Shown piece by piece: positions 5,128 through 17,164 of a stretch of DNA of 64,000 nt. The stretch lies in assembly GCA_965197925.1 (NCBI GenBank), contig CBDAOC010000020.1:288001-352000 (forward strand), in the 5' to 3' direction. Below the pieces are notes generated by a model. It did not search any database. It saw only the letters and a list, made by a program, of their open reading frames with translations, and was not told the origin of the DNA. The stretch comes from Nitrososphaerales archaeon. Lineage in GTDB: Archaea; Thermoproteota; Nitrososphaeria; Nitrososphaerales; UBA213. The stretch's first letter is position 1, and the number at the start of each line of letters is the position of its first letter. The position numbers and the translations under genes are program-made.

Positions 5128-5470
5128 TTCTCAATATTGATATCCAGTAAGGTATGGAAACAAAATCTTGAATATCGTATCTACAAGTAAATCATCTTCA
5201 TCTATACACATTGGTTTATCTAAAAAAATGGTGTATACGTTCGCAATAGCGATATTGAAAATTCTGGGTCCGAAAAGTAGTTTCTACATGCATCATCATT
5301 TAATTTGTAAGGGCGAGTGGTATCGATAATAAAAAGTATTAATAATAAAAAATTATGTTGTTGTGAAGTTGCCCTAATGGGCTTTTGCCAATAATTATGA
5401 GTTAGAATCCTCTTATTATGTAAATTTATAAGCGTTAGGATAATCCAAGACAGGATCTGACAATGACTAA

Positions 5471-5527
5471 GAGCTTATCCGAAAATTAACATCATAGCCT
5501 AATTGTTTATACCGAAACAGATCTAGA
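5471..5527 (+). mobile_element. Isolated 57-bp left end of IS5 element C
   Basis: Exact reverse complement of 1051-1107. Confidence 0.9.
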
Positions 5528-5725
5528 ATAGTACTATTAGCATTTTACAGGCACGGTATTTTATGTTTACCATAAAATAAGGCATAAAATAACACAGTTT
5601 TTCAATTTAGGTAGTGTCCCTAGGTAGTGTCCCTTTTGCAAAAAGGTGCGCACTAGGTAGTGTCCCTTTACGTAAAAGGACACTACCTAAAATGCTCTAA
5701 TAGTACTGCGCTAGCACAGTACTAT
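5528..5725. repeat. Palindrome- and iteron-rich non-coding region: TAGGTAGTGTCCC x3 direct plus one inverted copy, and several other palindromes
   Basis: Copies at 5608-5620, 5621-5633, 5654-5666; inverted GGACACTACCTA at 5678-5689; ATAGTACTG-CGCTAGCA-CAGTACTAT at 5700-5725; TATTTTATG/CATAAAATA at 5557-5579. Confidence 0.9.
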
Positions 5726-5879
5726 GATGCATTAAAAGTAAAGTATTAAGTCAATAATATTCATGATTTTCGGGGAGGGGTAAGCGATACGAAGGACAGA
5801 GGTCCCTATATACATATAGTATATTATTACTGTTTTAGAAATTCAACGTCATATACTCCCTTCCCCTTACTACTACTAC

Positions 5880-6167
5880 ATGGGCTTACTACAGATACTT
5901 ACAACGGCACTGCAACAATACAGGCAAGGCATAGTATTTGCCATCCAGCAAGGCAAGGTGTATGATATTATGTTATGTATCAACGCAATGAACAGCGTCC
6001 TACCAAAGACAGCACGGTGCAAACTACCCAAGCCACCGAGCAGGGACAACACAAGACCGTCATCAATGAGCGTTGCACAGTGGGAATGGGCTAACGAGGC
6101 ACTGCCAAGACTGGAAGACACCATCAGCGAATACCTCCAGAGTACATTCAAGGATATGGAACTATGA
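5880..6167 (+). CDS. Hypothetical protein of the island, translationally coupled to the ATPase
   Basis: ATGA overlap with 6164; AACGTCATA 35 bp upstream. Confidence 0.7.
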   Translation: MGLLQILTTALQQYRQGIVFAIQQGKVYDIMLCINAMNSVLPKTARCKLPKPPSRDNTRPSSMSVAQWEWANEALPRLEDTISEYLQSTFKDMEL

Positions 6168-7177
6168 GCGAACAACAAAAACACTACAGCGAGAGAACCA
6201 CGACGCTGCTAAACATCCCCATCCTTCAAAAACATTCACCTAACCCAGTAGTCAACAATATCCTTAACCATAACTCGTTAAGCGGATATACGGGCATACT
6301 ATCGATAGGGCACAGCGGCTCAGGCAAAACTACGATAGTTTCCTTGTTATCCCACTTGCTGCACGAAAAACAAAACTTTGCAGTTTACGATTACGGGGCG
6401 GATGAACTGATGGACGTTCACAACATCATAAAAAAAATGCCAAAAGCACCGTCAATACTGAAGTTTGACGATGCCAGTTATACATTTGCTGCAATGTCGG
6501 AACCTGAGCGTAACAAGCTGGCTTCAGGCCTTACGACGATCAGGCATGAGGTTAAGAATCCAGTGATAGTGTTCATGAATATCCACTACAGCAAGGCACT
6601 CGAAAAATTCTTCAGGGACACGGATTTCAAGATTCTCACCTCAATATCGGATGAAGAGATGGATAACTTCCAAAAATTGTTTGGATTTAAAAACACGATG
6701 AAATTACATAGATTCACCAGGCTATACCGCTCAATGATGCTACGAAAAAAATTCATAATAGGAAAATATACTTATCACACGCACAACCCATTCCGCATTG
6801 CATTGATTAGCGAATTGGGTAAACTGCATGGAGTTCTTTATTATCGTGACGCATGTAACAAATGCGTCAAGGATTTTCACACGGAAGAAATGCCCGCAAG
6901 GGATTTAGTGGATAAATTAATTGCAGGAAATGGCAGGGATAAGACACGGTCATGCCTACGGTGGTACCTGTATTATAACCAGAATCGAACTACTGCCATT
7001 GAATCTAGGACACGTTCAACATTTAATATGATAAACAAGTATGCACATAAATGCAAAATCGATTGGGACGAAGTGGAAAAAATAATACATGAGGAATTAT
7101 CCCGTGAAAGAAAGAAACGACATGAAACACTGGTCAAGGTAACACATGAAAAGAAAACTGTGGACGATGCGGCTTGA
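6164..7177 (+). CDS. P-loop ATPase, A32/FtsK-HerA-like (candidate viral genome packaging ATPase)
   Basis: Walker A GHSGSGKT, Walker B ILKFDD, RH followed by hydrophobic strand VIVFMNIH. Confidence 0.7.
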   Translation: MSEQQKHYSERTTTLLNIPILQKHSPNPVVNNILNHNSLSGYTGILSIGHSGSGKTTIVSLLSHLLHEKQNFAVYDYGADELMDVHNIIKKMPKAPSILKFDDASYTFAAMSEPERNKLASGLTTIRHEVKNPVIVFMNIHYSKALEKFFRDTDFKILTSISDEEMDNFQKLFGFKNTMKLHRFTRLYRSMMLRKKFIIGKYTYHTHNPFRIALISELGKLHGVLYYRDACNKCVKDFHTEEMPARDLVDKLIAGNGRDKTRSCLRWYLYYNQNRTTAIESRTRSTFNMINKYAHKCKIDWDEVEKIIHEELSRERKKRHETLVKVTHEKKTVDDAA

Positions 7178-7272
7178 TACCAGTCTTAACCAGTCTTGAC
7201 CAATCCTATCCAATGGCGAGCGGAATAAAACCCTAAATCTAACGTCATAACCCTACAAATGATTGGTAGGAC

Positions 7273-8304
7273 ATGCTGAATGTCAATATCCCAATCATAA
7301 AAAATAAGTACGTCCACATATTGGCGATCCTTGCACCAATCATTTTTCTCAAGGCGGTAATAATCCTCTCACATCCGACATGCATCGGTTCTGACTGTAG
7401 TACCTATATCAGAATACTTGAGCATCCTGAAGAATGGCAGGAAAGGCACGGACTCATCGAACCACTGTTTTTAGTCATTGCAAAACCATTAATGTTATTA
7501 TTCAGTCCTGGTGACACCATAAAAATAATCCAACTAGGTTCACATACAAATCTTGTAATTGGCACATTCATCCTGATGCGCAGGCATTACGGCATGAATG
7601 CCGCAGTGATCGGTGTCATATTGGTAAGTTCAGTCTCATCCATGAACACGTACATAATTGAACTTGTACGCAACATGATCTCATTGAGCATTTTTCCGTA
7701 CGTCCTTTATTTTATTTCAGGCAACAAAAATGAGACACCGAGGCAGTATGCCTGCATCCTGATCATATCGGCGCTTATGCTACTGGCGCATAGGTCGTCA
7801 ATAGTACTAATTACCGCAATAGGTATCTACATGATATGGCAGCACAGGCAGATGAGATCATACATCCTGATTACAATGACATTGCTGGCCATTACAATTG
7901 GTTATTGCTTCATGATACAGAACACCAGTTCGGCAGCAGGAAGCCCGACACCAGAACATAATCTAATCCTGTTGTTGCTACCGTATTTATGGGTCCTTGT
8001 CCCGATATTCAAGACAAGGCTCCACCATCATTGGATGGTTAAAATTTTACTACTCTCAGTAATTCCTTCATTGGTAATATTCCCATTTGTAGGGTTCAGC
8101 ATGGCACAGCGATTGATAATAGAGACATACCTACCATTCACCTACATACTGGTCATCTTTATGTCAACGTTATTTGAGGGGAGGGTTTCATCATCAATAA
8201 GACCGTCACACCTACGAATCATTGCGATCACATTACTATTCGTATTGCTTATCATTGATACCCCTATCTCACTAACATTCCTGATCACCAGGTATGGTAA
8301 GTGA
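7273..8304 (+). CDS. Polytopic membrane protein, GT-C/PMT-like glycosyltransferase candidate
   Basis: About 9-10 hydrophobic segments; GSD..Y loop after TM1 and an EPLF motif. Confidence 0.5.
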   Translation: MLNVNIPIIKNKYVHILAILAPIIFLKAVIILSHPTCIGSDCSTYIRILEHPEEWQERHGLIEPLFLVIAKPLMLLFSPGDTIKIIQLGSHTNLVIGTFILMRRHYGMNAAVIGVILVSSVSSMNTYIIELVRNMISLSIFPYVLYFISGNKNETPRQYACILIISALMLLAHRSSIVLITAIGIYMIWQHRQMRSYILITMTLLAITIGYCFMIQNTSSAAGSPTPEHNLILLLLPYLWVLVPIFKTRLHHHWMVKILLLSVIPSLVIFPFVGFSMAQRLIIETYLPFTYILVIFMSTLFEGRVSSSIRPSHLRIIAITLLFVLLIIDTPISLTFLITRYGK

Positions 8305-8472
8305 TAGATATTGATGACCTGGTATGATAGATCATAAAAATTCCTAAAGCTTATCCCGTTGGTACGATGGGAACATTTGATTCCATCTTTAACACGTTAA
8401 ATATATGGTATAACCACCTAATAAGCGTTATTCAGATTATAACGTCATAACCTATTACACCATTTCCAAATC

Positions 8473-8940
8473 ATGAGAAGCCGACTATTCCTGACAACCA
8501 TTGGTATTATCACGGTCATTGCCCTGTTGTACAATTACTCAATGGCACCAACATCACTGACACTGACCGACAGCGATCACTATTTTATTGGTGGCGGATT
8601 CTCGGGGAACACGACATCAACGACAACCAACTACATGACGGTATTTGGTGATGGCGTATCAGGCACTTACAATGACACATACATCACCATGCCGCATAAT
8701 GCAACACTGTCAAACCTTCATGTCGTGCATCATGGAGCAATACCAGTAACCTTTACCCTACATCACAATGGTACGGCGACAGGTATGGCTTGCACAACAA
8801 CAGGCGCAATCCAGGACTGCTCCGACACGACAGATACAGTCCAGGTGGCAAAGGGTGACACGATAGCACTTGCATACATCCTGAGTTCAGGTGTTGATAG
8901 CGGTCATTTTAGGTACACAATGGAGGTAGATCCAGCTTAA
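8473..8940 (+). CDS. Secreted or membrane-anchored Thr/Gly-rich beta protein (candidate virion/surface glycoprotein)
   Basis: N-terminal hydrophobic signal; sequons NYS, NTT, NDT, NAT, NGT; one Cys pair. Confidence 0.6.
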   Translation: MRSRLFLTTIGIITVIALLYNYSMAPTSLTLTDSDHYFIGGGFSGNTTSTTTNYMTVFGDGVSGTYNDTYITMPHNATLSNLHVVHHGAIPVTFTLHHNGTATGMACTTTGAIQDCSDTTDTVQVAKGDTIALAYILSSGVDSGHFRYTMEVDPA

Positions 8941-8988
8941 CCTTTTTTTCTTTAATATATCATACAAATCCACGTATAGGGGTTACAA

Positions 8989-9306
8989 ATGCCAACACTT
9001 GACGCAGGCCTGTTTCTCATCATATCGGCGATTGGGTTCATCTTCATGTTCATTTCATCAAGAACCTATATCGACGTGGCGTTTCGCTTGATACCTGTTT
9101 TCCTACTCTTCGGTCTTGGAGTAGCACTGATAGCAGAGTATGAGGTATCCTATACCGCAGAAAGCACTGACGGCGCCACGACGGTCACGGAAACCAGGTA
9201 CATACTACGGAACAACACTGACTGGCTGGGATGGGTATATGTGATGCTTGGAACATTTTCCATTGTTTTATTTTACAAGGAGATAATGTACGCAAGAGAG
9301 GCATGA
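8989..9306 (+). CDS. Small 3-TM membrane protein of the island (candidate structural protein)
   Basis: Three hydrophobic helices, NNT sequon; followed by an ATGA-coupled 33-aa ORF at 9303. Confidence 0.6.
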   Translation: MPTLDAGLFLIISAIGFIFMFISSRTYIDVAFRLIPVFLLFGLGVALIAEYEVSYTAESTDGATTVTETRYILRNNTDWLGWVYVMLGTFSIVLFYKEIMYAREA

Positions 9307-9509
9307 GGACAGGGGATGGCATAGTTGATACGGATACTGATGCGGTTGTACCTGTTGATGATTATTGTAGACGTATTGCTTTGATGATGAACCGAGTCAT
9401 GTAGACTTGGCCTAGGATAATTATAGCATGACAAGTGATTTTCAAATGATAAGGAATTAGTAAAAAGAAAAAGAGGGGAGTTAAGAAGCCCAACGTCGGG
9501 ATTCTTTCT

Positions 9510-9923
9510 TTATGCGTGGATGCCTATCTTCTGCTTCTCTTCCCTGTTAGCCAGGAATGAGGTCATCCAACCTAAGATGGCACCAAAGAGAGCATACTGT
9601 AGTAATGGCACAAGTAATTCTGTGTACGGCATTGATTCTGGCTTTGCTATTACAGCGAAAGATACCAATCCAGTAATTACACCCAATGATACTGCATCTT
9701 TGGTTCTTACTGGTTTAACACTATCGTTGGATGTCAACACACCATATATTGCACCTACGATTAGAGTGGTAGGCAATAGCACTTGAAGGTCCAGAGTGTT
9801 TGTACCAAACATAGTAACCGCTAACACCAGTCCTGCAATGAGTCCTGCAATCGCTCCATTTCGAATACCCTTCTTTATTTCGTACTTGTTGTTTGACATA
9901 TTTGTCGATAGCCATAGATGCAA
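9510..9923 (-). CDS. 4-TM membrane protein (likely start 9899)
   Basis: GAIAGLIAG-type Gly-rich helices. Confidence 0.7.
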   Translation of the reverse strand: MHLWLSTNMSNNKYEIKKGIRNGAIAGLIAGLVLAVTMFGTNTLDLQVLLPTTLIVGAIYGVLTSNDSVKPVRTKDAVSLGVITGLVSFAVIAKPESMPYTELLVPLLQYALFGAILGWMTSFLANREEKQKIGIHA

Positions 9924-10542
9924 TGTAATATCCTTAAGCTTAGATAGTATAATGTTGATCTAGGAGTTGTCATATTATACACCATCGAAGGACAATATGC
10001 ATGTCAACATTTGTTGCATAGATGCGATGGTTTTGTTCTTCCAATCTCATATGATGTTGCATCTCATCATCAAGGATAATGAGAGGAATTGAAACTTTGA
10101 TTTGATGTATTTAAAGATAAATGAATTCCAAGTTTGGTCAGTTCATTTGGCCAGCTCATATTTTTCATATATTATGCACTTAACAAAAGGGTTCATCAAC
10201 AATTCAACAAATTATGTAATTTTAATATCCAAATCCAGCACAATATAAAAATCTAGACTGCTTGAGGATAAATACTGATTATTGAGAATGTTCCATTTGT
10301 CTCATAGTTATTCTCATATCATGAATAATCTCAAGTGGAGTCCAATCTCATCCATAAATCATCTCATGAACATAAGCAAATCACGTATTCATGAGGTTAG
10401 GAATCATTATCCTGTGAAAGCATATGACATATAACACATTGATCCAATGGTGCAATTCGATAAACAATGGTCTAAAACCTTTGGTTTCTGCACAGCCGCA
10501 GGAAGTTATCAATATACAGGCATTAACGATGGAGGCTAAAGG

Positions 10543-11135
10543 ATGACAGTGAAGTATGACAAAGAATACAAACAAGAAAATATTTTTGGAAAACCTTACA
10601 AAGAATTGGTAGATTTTTTTTAAAACATATCCAAAAAGAGGAAAAGTTTTAGATCTCGGTTGTGGTCAAGGAAGAGATTCTTTCACTCTTGCAAAACTTG
10701 GCTACAAAGTAACAGGGGTTGATATTTCCAAGGTTGGAATTTCTCAAATGCTTGAAAAGGCTAAAAAATCAAAGTTAAAAGTAAATGGAATCGTAGATGA
10801 TTTTTTCAAATTTAATCCAACGAGCAAATATGATGTAATTCTTTTGGATTCGGTTATTTAATTCTATAAAAGCACCAGAGAAAAAGAAACCAAGTTTTTA
10901 CTGCGAATTCTAGATTATGTAAAAACAGGTGGGGCTAGTCTGTATTTTTATCCATAAATCAACTTCTAGAGAAAAGTATCTGTGAAGTATCTTCAAGAAA
11001 TTAGATGGAATTTGGAATATTCAAATTGATAAACATGTCAATTTTATGTGGGAAGATAAAAACTCTAGACATAAACATAAAATTCAATTCAACATGGTCT
11101 TTGCCGAAAAATTAGAGAATAAGGATCATGATTAG
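10543..11135 (+). pseudogene. Class I SAM methyltransferase (TehB-like), frameshifted and with internal stops
   Basis: KVLDLGCGQGRDS...GYKVTGVDIS readable; extra T in the T-run near 10615; internal TAA. Confidence 0.8.
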
Positions 11136-15461: not shown

Positions 15462-17164
15462 TCAGGAAGGGGAGCAATTATCCCCGGATTCAATGTCTTG
15501 CGCAACACTACTTCTAGTTCTATCTATTATCCAGGAGGCTTCTGCTCGTAACTGCTTCGAAGAAAGCTTCCTACGGGCAAGGCGTTGTTTCTGTGCTTCC
15601 AAACCAACTGCAGCCGCCAATCTTATCACAACATCCTTTCTTGCCGAAGGTAAAATATAATCTTCTGTCAATCCATCCTCCTCTGCTATATCTGAAAGTT
15701 CTTGGGAAGCGGTGATTAGGATCTTATCTGTGATCTTCCTTGATCTAACATCCAAAATTCCCCTAAATATTCCTGGAAAAGCAAGCAAATTACTTATTTG
15801 ATTGTCAAAATCCGATCTCCCTGTCGCAACAACATTTGCACCAGCTTCTCTTGCTTCCCATGGCCATATTTCTGGCACGGGATTTGCGCATGCAATCACT
15901 ATGGGATCTGAGGACATCGATTGTATCCAATCCTTTTTTACTATACATGGTCCCGGTACAGAAAATCCAATCATAATATCAGCATCTTTCAGTGCTTCCC
16001 TGTTATTGCCAGTTCGTTCATGAACATTTGTTATTCTTGCAATCTCAAATTTTTCAGGACTGTTGGTAATATCTTTTCTACCCTGATAGATTATACCTTT
16101 GCTGTCCGTCATAATCATATTTTTGGATCTATATCCAGTCTTTATCAGAAGATTCGCAAGTGCGATGTTTACTGCACCAGCTCCAATTAGTGTTATATTG
16201 ACTTGAGATCTCTTTTTACCAACAACCTTTTGGGCATTCATAATAGCCGCCAAAGCTACTACCGCCGTTCCCTGCTGATCATCATGCCAGACTGGTATAT
16301 CGAGAATTTTTCTAAGCTCTCTCAGAACTCGGAAACATTTCGGTGCCTGTATATCCTCTAGATTTATTCCCCCAAAAGAGGATTCGATCCCTTGGTTATC
16401 TTTATGAGATCATCCTCCTTATTGGACTCGATACAAATTGGAAAGGCATCAATACCACCTAGATACTTGAAGAGTGTTGCCTTTCCCTCCATCACAGGCA
16501 AGGCAGCGAGTGGACCTATATTACCAAGACCAAGCACCCTACTGCCATCGGTAACTATCGCAACGTTATTCCACTTGTTTGTATAATCGTAAACCAAACT
16601 TGGCCTTTTCTTTATTGCCTTTGCAGGTTCGGCTACACCCGGTGATGTCCATATTTGAAAATCTGATAGGGATCTTATGGGAATCTTTATTGAGATTTCT
16701 ATCTTGCCTCTGTAACGCGGGTGTAATTTGAGCGAGGCTTGTGTGGGTTTGATTGCTCTAGATAACAGTTCATCCAGCTCTTCCCTTATTGTAAATTCCT
16801 GTGATAATAGTCCTACAAGCTGTCCGCGTGTATCGACTACACCTAACCTCCTACATTTGTTTTCTGCCATCATGGTTAAAGCATCTTTTACCTTTGCCTT
16901 TTCATTGATAGTGATTATGGGAATGGACATAACAAACTTCAACTTGGTGACCTTAGGATCTAGGCCTTGACCCAGAACCTTGCTCAGCATATCTCTCTCG
17001 GTAACTATTCCCACCGGCTCACCTTTTCGGGTAACAATCAAGCTGCCGAGTTTATATTTGGACATGAGCTTAGAAGCATTAAGGATATTATCATTCTCAT
17101 CTAAAAAATCCAATTCCCGCTTTATGTAATTTGATACGGGGGCTTCCAAATTAAGACGAACCAA
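15462..17164 (-). pseudogene. CBS-pair fused to NAD(P)-dependent malic enzyme, split by a single-base frameshift near 16388
   Basis: CBS VGIVTERD; malic enzyme motifs VAIVTDGSRVLGLGNIGP, MEGK, GINLEDI, WHDDQQGTA, GAGAV, ATGRSDF. Confidence 0.9.

Follow-up and report, generated by a model that had tools for sequence, protein, structure and literature searches.

A truncated element in an ammonia-oxidising archaeon, probably the left arm of a provirus related to the Nipumfusiviridae

The closest described relatives of the element considered here, which lies at 5522-9360 of a 64,000-nucleotide stretch (the window) of a Nitrososphaerales genome, are the Nipumfusiviridae, described by Ni et al. 2024 (PMC10866085) and ICTV 2025 (PMC12451623). 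In these sources, the family consists of metagenome-only genomes whose hosts are predicted with limited confidence, and its morphology is itself only predicted (PMC10866085). Thaspiviridae are represented by NSV1, a linear chronic virus with terminal inverted repeats and a protein-primed polymerase (PMC8491892). The host genome studied here (2.9 Mb, hereafter G000) carries amoA and belongs to an ammonia-oxidising archaeon. We propose that the element is most probably what is left of a provirus after truncation, namely its left arm, and that the provirus stems from spindle-shaped viruses of such archaea that integrate and form a sister lineage of the Nipumfusiviridae. This lineage is apparently undescribed, and the copy in the window is decayed.

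Integrated elements of related hosts have been surveyed by Krupovic et al. 2019 (PMC6563490). As far as the accessible text of that study goes, thaumarchaeal integrase-bearing islands have attachment sites down to 8 bp, some of them at the 3′ ends of protein genes, and its authors suggested that cryptic elements may be unknown viruses. Unlike the element described here, the proviruses reported in that text are only of the head-tail and double jelly-roll types, and insertion sequences (ISs) are not among the targets it describes. The supplement of PMC6563490 may list a member of our lineage as cryptic, and the nine capsid-less families and the Jordviridae of bioRxiv 2025.08.23.671958 could contain members as well. 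Literature searches, which did not cover supplements, returned no description of the lineage or of IS-targeted integration. The lineage may explain some integrated elements that have been called cryptic.

Relationship to the Nipumfusiviridae

The link to the Nipumfusiviridae is carried in the first place by a P-loop ATPase of 337 amino acids (aa), encoded by a confirmed open reading frame (ORF) at 6164-7177 on the plus strand. By tblastn it matches 11 of 11 Nipumfusiviridae records (E 1e-19 to 2e-13, 24-31% identity), and among 50,697 phage records its matches are limited to this family. Together with the amoA-bearing host, this bears out the suggestion, made in a first-pass annotation of the window, of an undescribed Nitrososphaerota virus. 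There are 131 homologues of the ATPase, and the Walker A, FDDAS, LTxIRH and HYSKA motifs are invariant in the alignment. For the predicted structure (pLDDT 84), the top match in BFVD is a Nitrosopumilus spindle-shaped virus protein (E 3e-11), with A32-like ATPases next. Comparison with solved structures gives VirB4 (Z 13.2) and STIV2 B204 (Z 12.3); Foldseek places clamp loaders first by E-value and B204 best by TM-score. The longest structural alignments (163-188 residues) are those with VirB4, B204, HerA, TcpA and FtsK, while matches to AAA+ proteins stop near residue 160. The protein is the hallmark ATPase of Nipumfusiviridae-like viruses, and its predicted fold is of the FtsK/HerA-A32 type with extra C-terminal strands. 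The packaging-type fold recognised in the first-pass annotation is retained; genome packaging as such would be a reading of that fold. Most likely, the ATPase would drive movement of the virus DNA while particles assemble or are extruded at the membrane; PMC10866085 ties the Nipumfusiviridae ATPase to replication instead. In a quick tree with long branches, from which ATPases <300 aa and duplicates were left out, the element ATPases form a clade separate from the Nipumfusiviridae. One homologue (P0069) carries an intein-like insertion directly before Walker A.

The similarity extends to the surrounding genes. The block shown here comprises the 95-aa protein, the ATPase, the 105-aa and 115-aa proteins, a hairpin protein that is the capsid candidate, a second hairpin protein, an adhesin and two more membrane proteins. 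Like the Nipumfusiviridae, the lineage has a homologous ATPase, a core protein preceding it, an adhesin, three membrane proteins and a candidate for the predicted capsid protein, with two cysteines in its turn; both have ammonia-oxidising hosts and, as judged from a provirus in another genome (G084), a size of ~30 kb. Six further block genes are homologous to Nipumfusiviridae genes (hhalign E 9e-5, 3e-5, 2e-4, 4e-8 and 7e-7; adhesin, blastp 2e-20), and the 102-aa, 389-aa and 115-aa families match three conserved Nipumfusiviridae ORFs. The 95-aa protein (5880-6167, plus strand; ORF confirmed) aligns with the N-terminal part of the zinc-binding core protein (hhalign E 9e-5, 47 columns), which precedes the ATPase in the Nipumfusiviridae.

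There are also differences. The element is found integrated and has a recombinase, its 95-aa protein is devoid of the zinc domain, its ATPases form the separate clade, and identity to the Nipumfusiviridae is 22-35% over the few proteins detected by blastp. The core set of G000 reaches 26.7-29.6% over only 1-2 of 14 proteins; G084 reaches 22.5-27.5% with three members and 34.7% over 6 proteins with NYM1, all of these values being best-hit means against 4 of the 11 Nipumfusiviridae genomes rather than formal average amino acid identities. Because the element misses the 30% identity rule of the family in the proteins compared, and has an integrase that its members appear to lack, we do not file it there.

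The Thaspiviridae are like the element in that they provide the best structural match of the ATPase, have a small two-helix capsid protein, to which the hairpin capsid candidate would correspond, and, in the NSV1 map, a glycosyltransferase gene (PMC8491892). Unlike NSV1, the elements described here are integrated at a short core; the G084 provirus sits between direct repeats, in place of a linear genome with terminal inverted repeats, and no protein-primed family B polymerase was noticed among the element ORF listings, for which no polymerase profile was run. With the Fuselloviridae (SSV1), the element would share a spindle shape, a temperate life style, a tyrosine integrase, two hairpin capsid-like proteins and an adhesin. 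SSV integrates into tRNA genes, at sites of 40-50 bp, and its integrase is split in the process. The recombinase of the element, in contrast, remains uninterrupted after integration, and a core of 6-8 bp is used that lies within an IS or where a gene ends (PMC8371274 is the source for part of this comparison). Neither PHROG nor PDB sequence searches matched fuselloviruses. An affinity to pleolipoviruses, entertained in the first-pass annotation, found no support in PHROG, Pfam or phage-record matches, and no dedicated profile was run. Pfam and PHROGs gave nothing beyond generic P-loop and PMT_2 matches, and PDB sequence searches with the ATPase, recombinase and capsid profiles returned no informative match.

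The window copy and its relatives

The element in the window is the left 3.8 kb of a defective provirus, consisting of an attachment site, a repeat-bearing end, five genes and a break. It begins at 5522, directly 3′ of an IS half, and ends at 9360, rather than at 5528 and 9405 as first annotated. The five co-oriented ORFs of 95, 337, 343, 155 and 105 aa are all real genes under purifying selection, with dN/dS against paralogous copies in the same genome of 0.05 (95 aa), 0.07-0.08 (ATPase), 0.20-0.33 (343 aa), 0.15 (155 aa) and 0.09 (105 aa). A sixth ORF of 33 aa, listed with them at first, is a junction artefact which spans the break at 9360/9361 between the element and an unrelated multi-copy segment. 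Likewise, of two ATGA couplings the one between the 95-aa and ATPase genes (6164-6167) is real, and the one with the 33-aa ORF is not. The 105-aa ORF (8989-9306, plus strand; confirmed) encodes a conserved membrane protein of the virion-gene block, and is followed by the start of a conserved gene for a 115-aa membrane protein, which the break cuts off after 7 codons (9340-9360, plus strand), as alignment with the long copy at C19:77521 indicates. Sequencing run X9 leads at 9360 into the intact form of this gene. The window copy alone cannot excise or make particles.

Relatives of this stretch, 78-93% identical, occur in at least seven other places of G000. The longest copy (C19:72347 to ~87300) further encodes two membrane proteins of 115 and 92 aa and an adhesin of 1298 aa with a PKD domain, and has genes of 389, 102, 113 and 123 aa. 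Shorter copies share this left end and extend as far as a 119-aa gene, a gene resembling a small regulator, and a protein of 430-480 aa. In this last protein the tyrosine-recombinase set R268, K302/K309, YxxR396, W419 and Y429 is invariant in 22 of 22 aligned sequences, with Y replacing the first H of the catalytic R-K-(H)xxR-H/W-Y set, and its Atlas score to phage integrases is 0.98. We identify it as a divergent tyrosine recombinase, present in sister copies and not found in any of the phage records searched or in four Nipumfusiviridae genomes compared. The first-pass statement that no integrase lies inside the element is correct for the window copy; the integrase, capsid and adhesin genes lie in the sister copies. 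An intact gene for the capsid candidate, a 76-aa hairpin protein, is located in another fragment (C19:118531-118761). Its model consists of helices 4-30 and 39-68 (pLDDT 86). This 76-79-aa hairpin is the most conserved protein, and aligns with the predicted capsid protein of the Nipumfusiviridae at an hhalign probability of 74% (E 3e-5, 45 columns); a four-sequence capsid hidden Markov model (HMM) did not detect it in G000, and tblastn gave no match.

Every core gene is intact somewhere in G000 (ATPase, 3 ORFs; 95 aa, 3; 105 aa, 2; recombinase, 4; capsid candidate, second hairpin, 115 aa and adhesin, 1 each), yet no copy is whole. Frameshifts and deletions are seen in several copies. Decay is the plainer reading of this pattern and complementation the bolder one. 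Copies differ by dS 0.15-0.8; the 95-aa genes at C19:72760 and C19:41346 are near-identical (dS 0). In sequencing runs from three studies, one of which may be the source sample, the stretch is multi-copy, at ~1-6x the depth of its flanks and with many variants.

The gene block also recurs in metagenome contigs. We compared 82 environmental loci, namely the best 80 of 172 metagenome matches and 2 genome contigs, many of them short and several near-identical. The 95-aa gene is present, adjoining the ATPase, in 75 of the 82, the recombinase in 30, the capsid candidate in 29, and recombinase and capsid candidate together in 19. Two related families of the 105-aa protein are found in 16 and 19 loci, and its G084 homologue matches at E 6.5e-14. 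The genes are usually arranged as recombinase, 95 aa, ATPase, 105 aa, 115 aa, capsid candidate, second hairpin, adhesin. In one subgroup of related contigs (L049, L070, L073) a PCNA-like gene lies directly 3′ of the ATPase; NSV1 encodes PCNA too.

Among 400 other genomes of the order, a full-length ATPase is found in 5 (the other 39 matches are short P-loop matches), on which ground we reject a reading as core genes of the host. None of 8 relatives of the same family has the ATPase, recombinase or capsid gene. One of the carriers, G084 (one contig, another family), contains a complete provirus of 30,678 bp with the whole block and the recombinase, located between TCTGGAAG direct repeats at the end of a host gene. 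The corresponding empty site is clear in G033 and G180 (2 of 5 genomes checked). A tRNA-Phe beside this provirus was rejected as its target. Further integrated or partial relatives are present in G036 and G162. The ATPases of G183 and G219 group with the Nipumfusiviridae and lie near integrase-like genes. Both belong to chromosomal islands (G183:C2:253688-263986, G219:C22:113560-120588), where a zinc protein of the Nipumfusiviridae type and two further ORFs, one large and replication-like and the other integrase-like, are present with no virion genes in view. One tally also took in the unpublished genome G270, on which none of our conclusions depends. The lineage is integrated in three host families, which provides a direct host link, and the apparently intact lysogen in G084 allows morphology and the role of the ATPase to be tested.

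Integration at a short palindromic core and alternative readings

To its left the element abuts the left 62 bp of an IS5-family insertion sequence (5466-5527, plus strand), host DNA used as a target and split at its internal palindrome. In G000 the attachment core TCTAGA (attL of the window copy, 5522-5527) is found at all 8 left ends and at all but one of the 14 right ends (13; 21 of 22 in total). The 62-bp sequence has 62 copies in the genome, most running on into a transposase gene; an IS copy near 1051-1114 of the window encodes DUF4096 and DDE_Tnp_1 pieces. In 51 IS5 copies the site, with its palindrome around TCTAGA, is intact. Judged from the flanks, IS halves abut 6 of the 8 left ends and 9 of the 14 right ends (15 of 22, not fully independent copies), in both orientations, although among 951 genomic TCTAGA sites roughly 70 are of the IS type. 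Each of two elements, which are oppositely oriented, has the two halves of a single IS at its sides (C19:418971-428850 and C20:31771-51907). A third pair of ends sits at a non-IS site, as do 6 of the 22 ends in all. Left and right ends have the core alone in common, no matching right end was found for the window copy, and no tRNA lies within the window. Elsewhere in G000, four IS5 halves continue at TCTAGA into sequence belonging to neither the IS nor the element (C20:548452, C17:117471, C17:37072, C19:362396), possible footprints of integrase-mediated deletion or rearrangement.

The conserved left end (5528-5714) is structured, as first described. It has an outer inverted repeat (5523-5540/5697-5714), three 14-nt direct repeats (5608, 5621 and 5654) and an 18-bp hairpin (palindrome 5654-5689), with a folding z of -4.95 (0 of 200 shuffles as good). 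Two-sided changes affect 5 of 16 hairpin pairs across 7 copies (0 of 500 shuffles), although related sequences can pass such shuffles and the alignment has gaps. The left end of the G084 provirus has the same repeat layout. Lying beside the core, the repeats are likely to be arm-type binding sites of the integrase and/or an origin. An Rfam scan of four element loci gave 0 hits.

The upstream motif noted at first proved to be private to the element. All 9 exact matches to AACGTCATAACC in the genome lie in element copies, which make up 3.5% of it, as do 11 of 22 matches with one mismatch. The motif is mostly ~32 nt upstream of a start codon; in the window it is found at 7241-7252 and 8441-8452 (both plus strand), in each case 32 nt before the start codon, of the 343-aa and the 155-aa gene respectively, and a variant (5845-5853, plus strand) precedes the 95-aa gene. 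It would be a virus-specific promoter or operator. In five short copies the deleted segment ends within ~45 nt before the motif, and within ~10 nt in three, the site at 8441-8452 being a recurrent junction point. Because deletion ends cluster there and each of the two lineage-specific genes (343 aa and 155 aa) carries one motif, it may also be an exchange point; selection to retain a promoter explains the pattern equally well. In the long copy a short duplication of the end of the GT-C-like gene precedes AACGTCATAACC. The G084 provirus has its own repeated upstream motif (C1:1134288, 1141825, 1158949, 1159654), unlike that of G000.

We suggest that a circular virus genome would be inserted by the recombinase at a core of 6-8 bp. 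In G000 the core is the palindrome TCTAGA, which predicts insertion either way round, and this would be why both orientations occur. The best target would lie inside the IS5 element, with ~60 copies, so that the IS would have multiplied the landing sites; the unusual copy number in G000 would be due to the dozens of targets it supplied. Several divergent virus strains (dS 0.15-0.8) would have integrated, and the copies would then have eroded through deletion, IS insertion and recombination. If so, a virus that targets an IS site is a case in which the provirus load and the rate of rearrangement due to one mobile element can be increased by a different one. The short palindromic core and its integrase could also become a genetic tool for ammonia-oxidising archaea.

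It is conceivable, though on balance unlikely, that the G000 elements are instead virus-derived satellites or integrative defence islands mobilised by a helper, the short forms dropping virion genes and carrying defence cargo while the ends, the ATPase, the recombinase and the 95-aa and 119-aa genes are kept, with the window copy as an intermediate. Consistent with this, in five short copies a 113-120-aa gene comes immediately after the ATPase or the 95-aa region, 4 recombinases are intact, all three copies with both ends lack virion genes, and cargo by the ends includes Hachiman HamA/HamB, a cytosine methylase with Vsr, and cas1. However, each of the five deletions starts on the left at a different breakpoint, three take away all or most of the ATPase, and in another copy the ATPase is frameshifted, which decay fits better. 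The window copy retains virion-block genes without the recombinase; it is a truncated provirus arm and not the self-contained form that a mini-element, as considered in the first-pass annotation, would be. A different notion, that fragments of a distributed or domesticated provirus supply core genes in trans and still make viral or gene-transfer-agent-like particles, draws on the presence of at least one intact ORF of each core gene and on the common upstream motif, which could co-regulate the fragments. We find it improbable: broken capsid, hairpin, 95-aa, ATPase and recombinase copies stand beside intact ones, the 246-aa ORF that follows the adhesin gene may have been split off by a frameshift, the ATPase, recombinase and capsid genes are missing from the eight family relatives, and the low dN/dS is a sign of how virus strains diverged and not of maintenance once integrated. 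Quite unlikely, too, is a broader scenario in which the virus uses the IS as a landing pad, the integrase reshuffles the chromosome at TCTAGA, the fragments form a complementing helper-satellite system that makes particles and moves defence cargo, and the motif is a cassette-exchange point.

Multiplication through duplication by ISs, or through transposition in which IS5 carried a composite of its left end, the provirus and its right part, would account for the 15 IS-abutting ends and the two bracketed elements in a genome so rich in ISs. It is very doubtful, since both orientations relative to the IS occur, 6 ends lie at non-IS TCTAGA, and copies differ by dS up to 0.8, far above the differences between IS copies; a few near-identical pairs (e.g. 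C19:72760/C19:41346) may still have an IS or recombinational origin. The VirB4 match of the ATPase, tied with B204, and the many small membrane proteins could also be taken as the DNA-transfer pore of an integrative plasmid or conjugative element. This seems hardly credible to us, as the closest relatives in sequence and structure are spindle-shaped virus proteins, the most conserved protein matches the predicted Nipumfusiviridae capsid protein, and no relaxase or VirB6-like gene was seen.

Several observations weigh against the truncated-provirus interpretation itself. The virus is deduced from sequence alone, with no particle or induction seen. The recombinase has no Pfam or PDB integrase match. 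The capsid protein remains a candidate, by its position, conservation and weak profile match: sequence searches gave no solved or annotated capsid relative, and a fold search was unspecific (APBV1 VP1 at rank 38, Z 6.2; SSV19 VP1 and SMV1 unlisted). The 105-aa, 113-aa and second hairpin proteins have no clear Nipumfusiviridae match. Pattern scans of IMG/VR with the ATPase and its alignment returned no matches, and most of the environmental ATPases that group closest to G000 in the tree lie beside other genes, with no capsid gene in the available DNA. No replication protein was identified, and no circular form was seen in run contigs, the only material covered, with a query stretch that excluded the right end. 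Finally, none of the contigs listed from the sequencing runs bridges the break at 9360, where an assembly error is possible.

Cargo genes and neighbouring sequence

Two of the five window genes stand apart from the conserved block. The 343-aa ORF (7273-8304, plus strand; confirmed) encodes a GT-C/PMT_2-like membrane protein with ~9 predicted helices (Pfam PMT_2 E 6.7e-7); among 8000 candidates scored it has only 4 homologues, at 72-99% identity, and 3 copies are intact in G000. The 155-aa ORF (8473-8940, plus strand; confirmed) encodes a membrane-anchored or secreted protein with 5 N-glycosylation sequons and a single domain that is repeated in large unnamed proteins (best Atlas score 0.87, a lead only), and is a candidate surface protein. 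Neither gene was found in the 82 related loci, in 14 G084 proteins tested or in four Nipumfusiviridae. By this distribution they appear to be lineage-specific cargo, and not the morphogenesis genes they were first taken for. The GT-C-like enzyme probably glycosylates virion or cell-surface proteins, e.g. the 155-aa protein. In the long copy, a 269-aa gene and a repeat fragment lie between the two genes (G000:C19:75569-76378).

The element was initially described as C-richer than its host, which is true to a modest degree. Its GC content is 41.8% versus 38.1% for the genome (94th percentile of 750 tiles), its tetranucleotide distance is at the 95.5th percentile, and C at third codon positions is 0.26 versus 0.15. 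The composition is thus modestly foreign.

Defence-type cargo is seen near element ends at C13:74402-78384, C20:38914-47699 and C20:1010417-1014803. The types include Hachiman HamA with a split HamB and a cytosine methylase with a Vsr nuclease; cas1 and a McrBC-like pair are named from the appearance of their sequences. A CRISPR spacer match to the element, also sought, was not obtained with the 4 spacers from two identical mini-arrays, two other short arrays having been filtered out. These mini-arrays, of three repeats each, lie at C18:164620 and C19:7563, and the same repeat occurs at the start of C1.

Beyond the break, 9361-10427 is a multi-copy chromosomal segment of ~1 kb outside the element, with 7 further copies (8 in the genome) and a gene for a small membrane protein of 129-137 aa on the minus strand. 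In three copies it follows the end of a gene with what we take to be a PEF-type C-terminal sorting-like tail. G000 is very rich in ISs and pseudogenes; in the window, a broken methyltransferase-like gene lies at 10544-10900, and a malic-enzyme gene at 15462-17164 is split into two ORFs.

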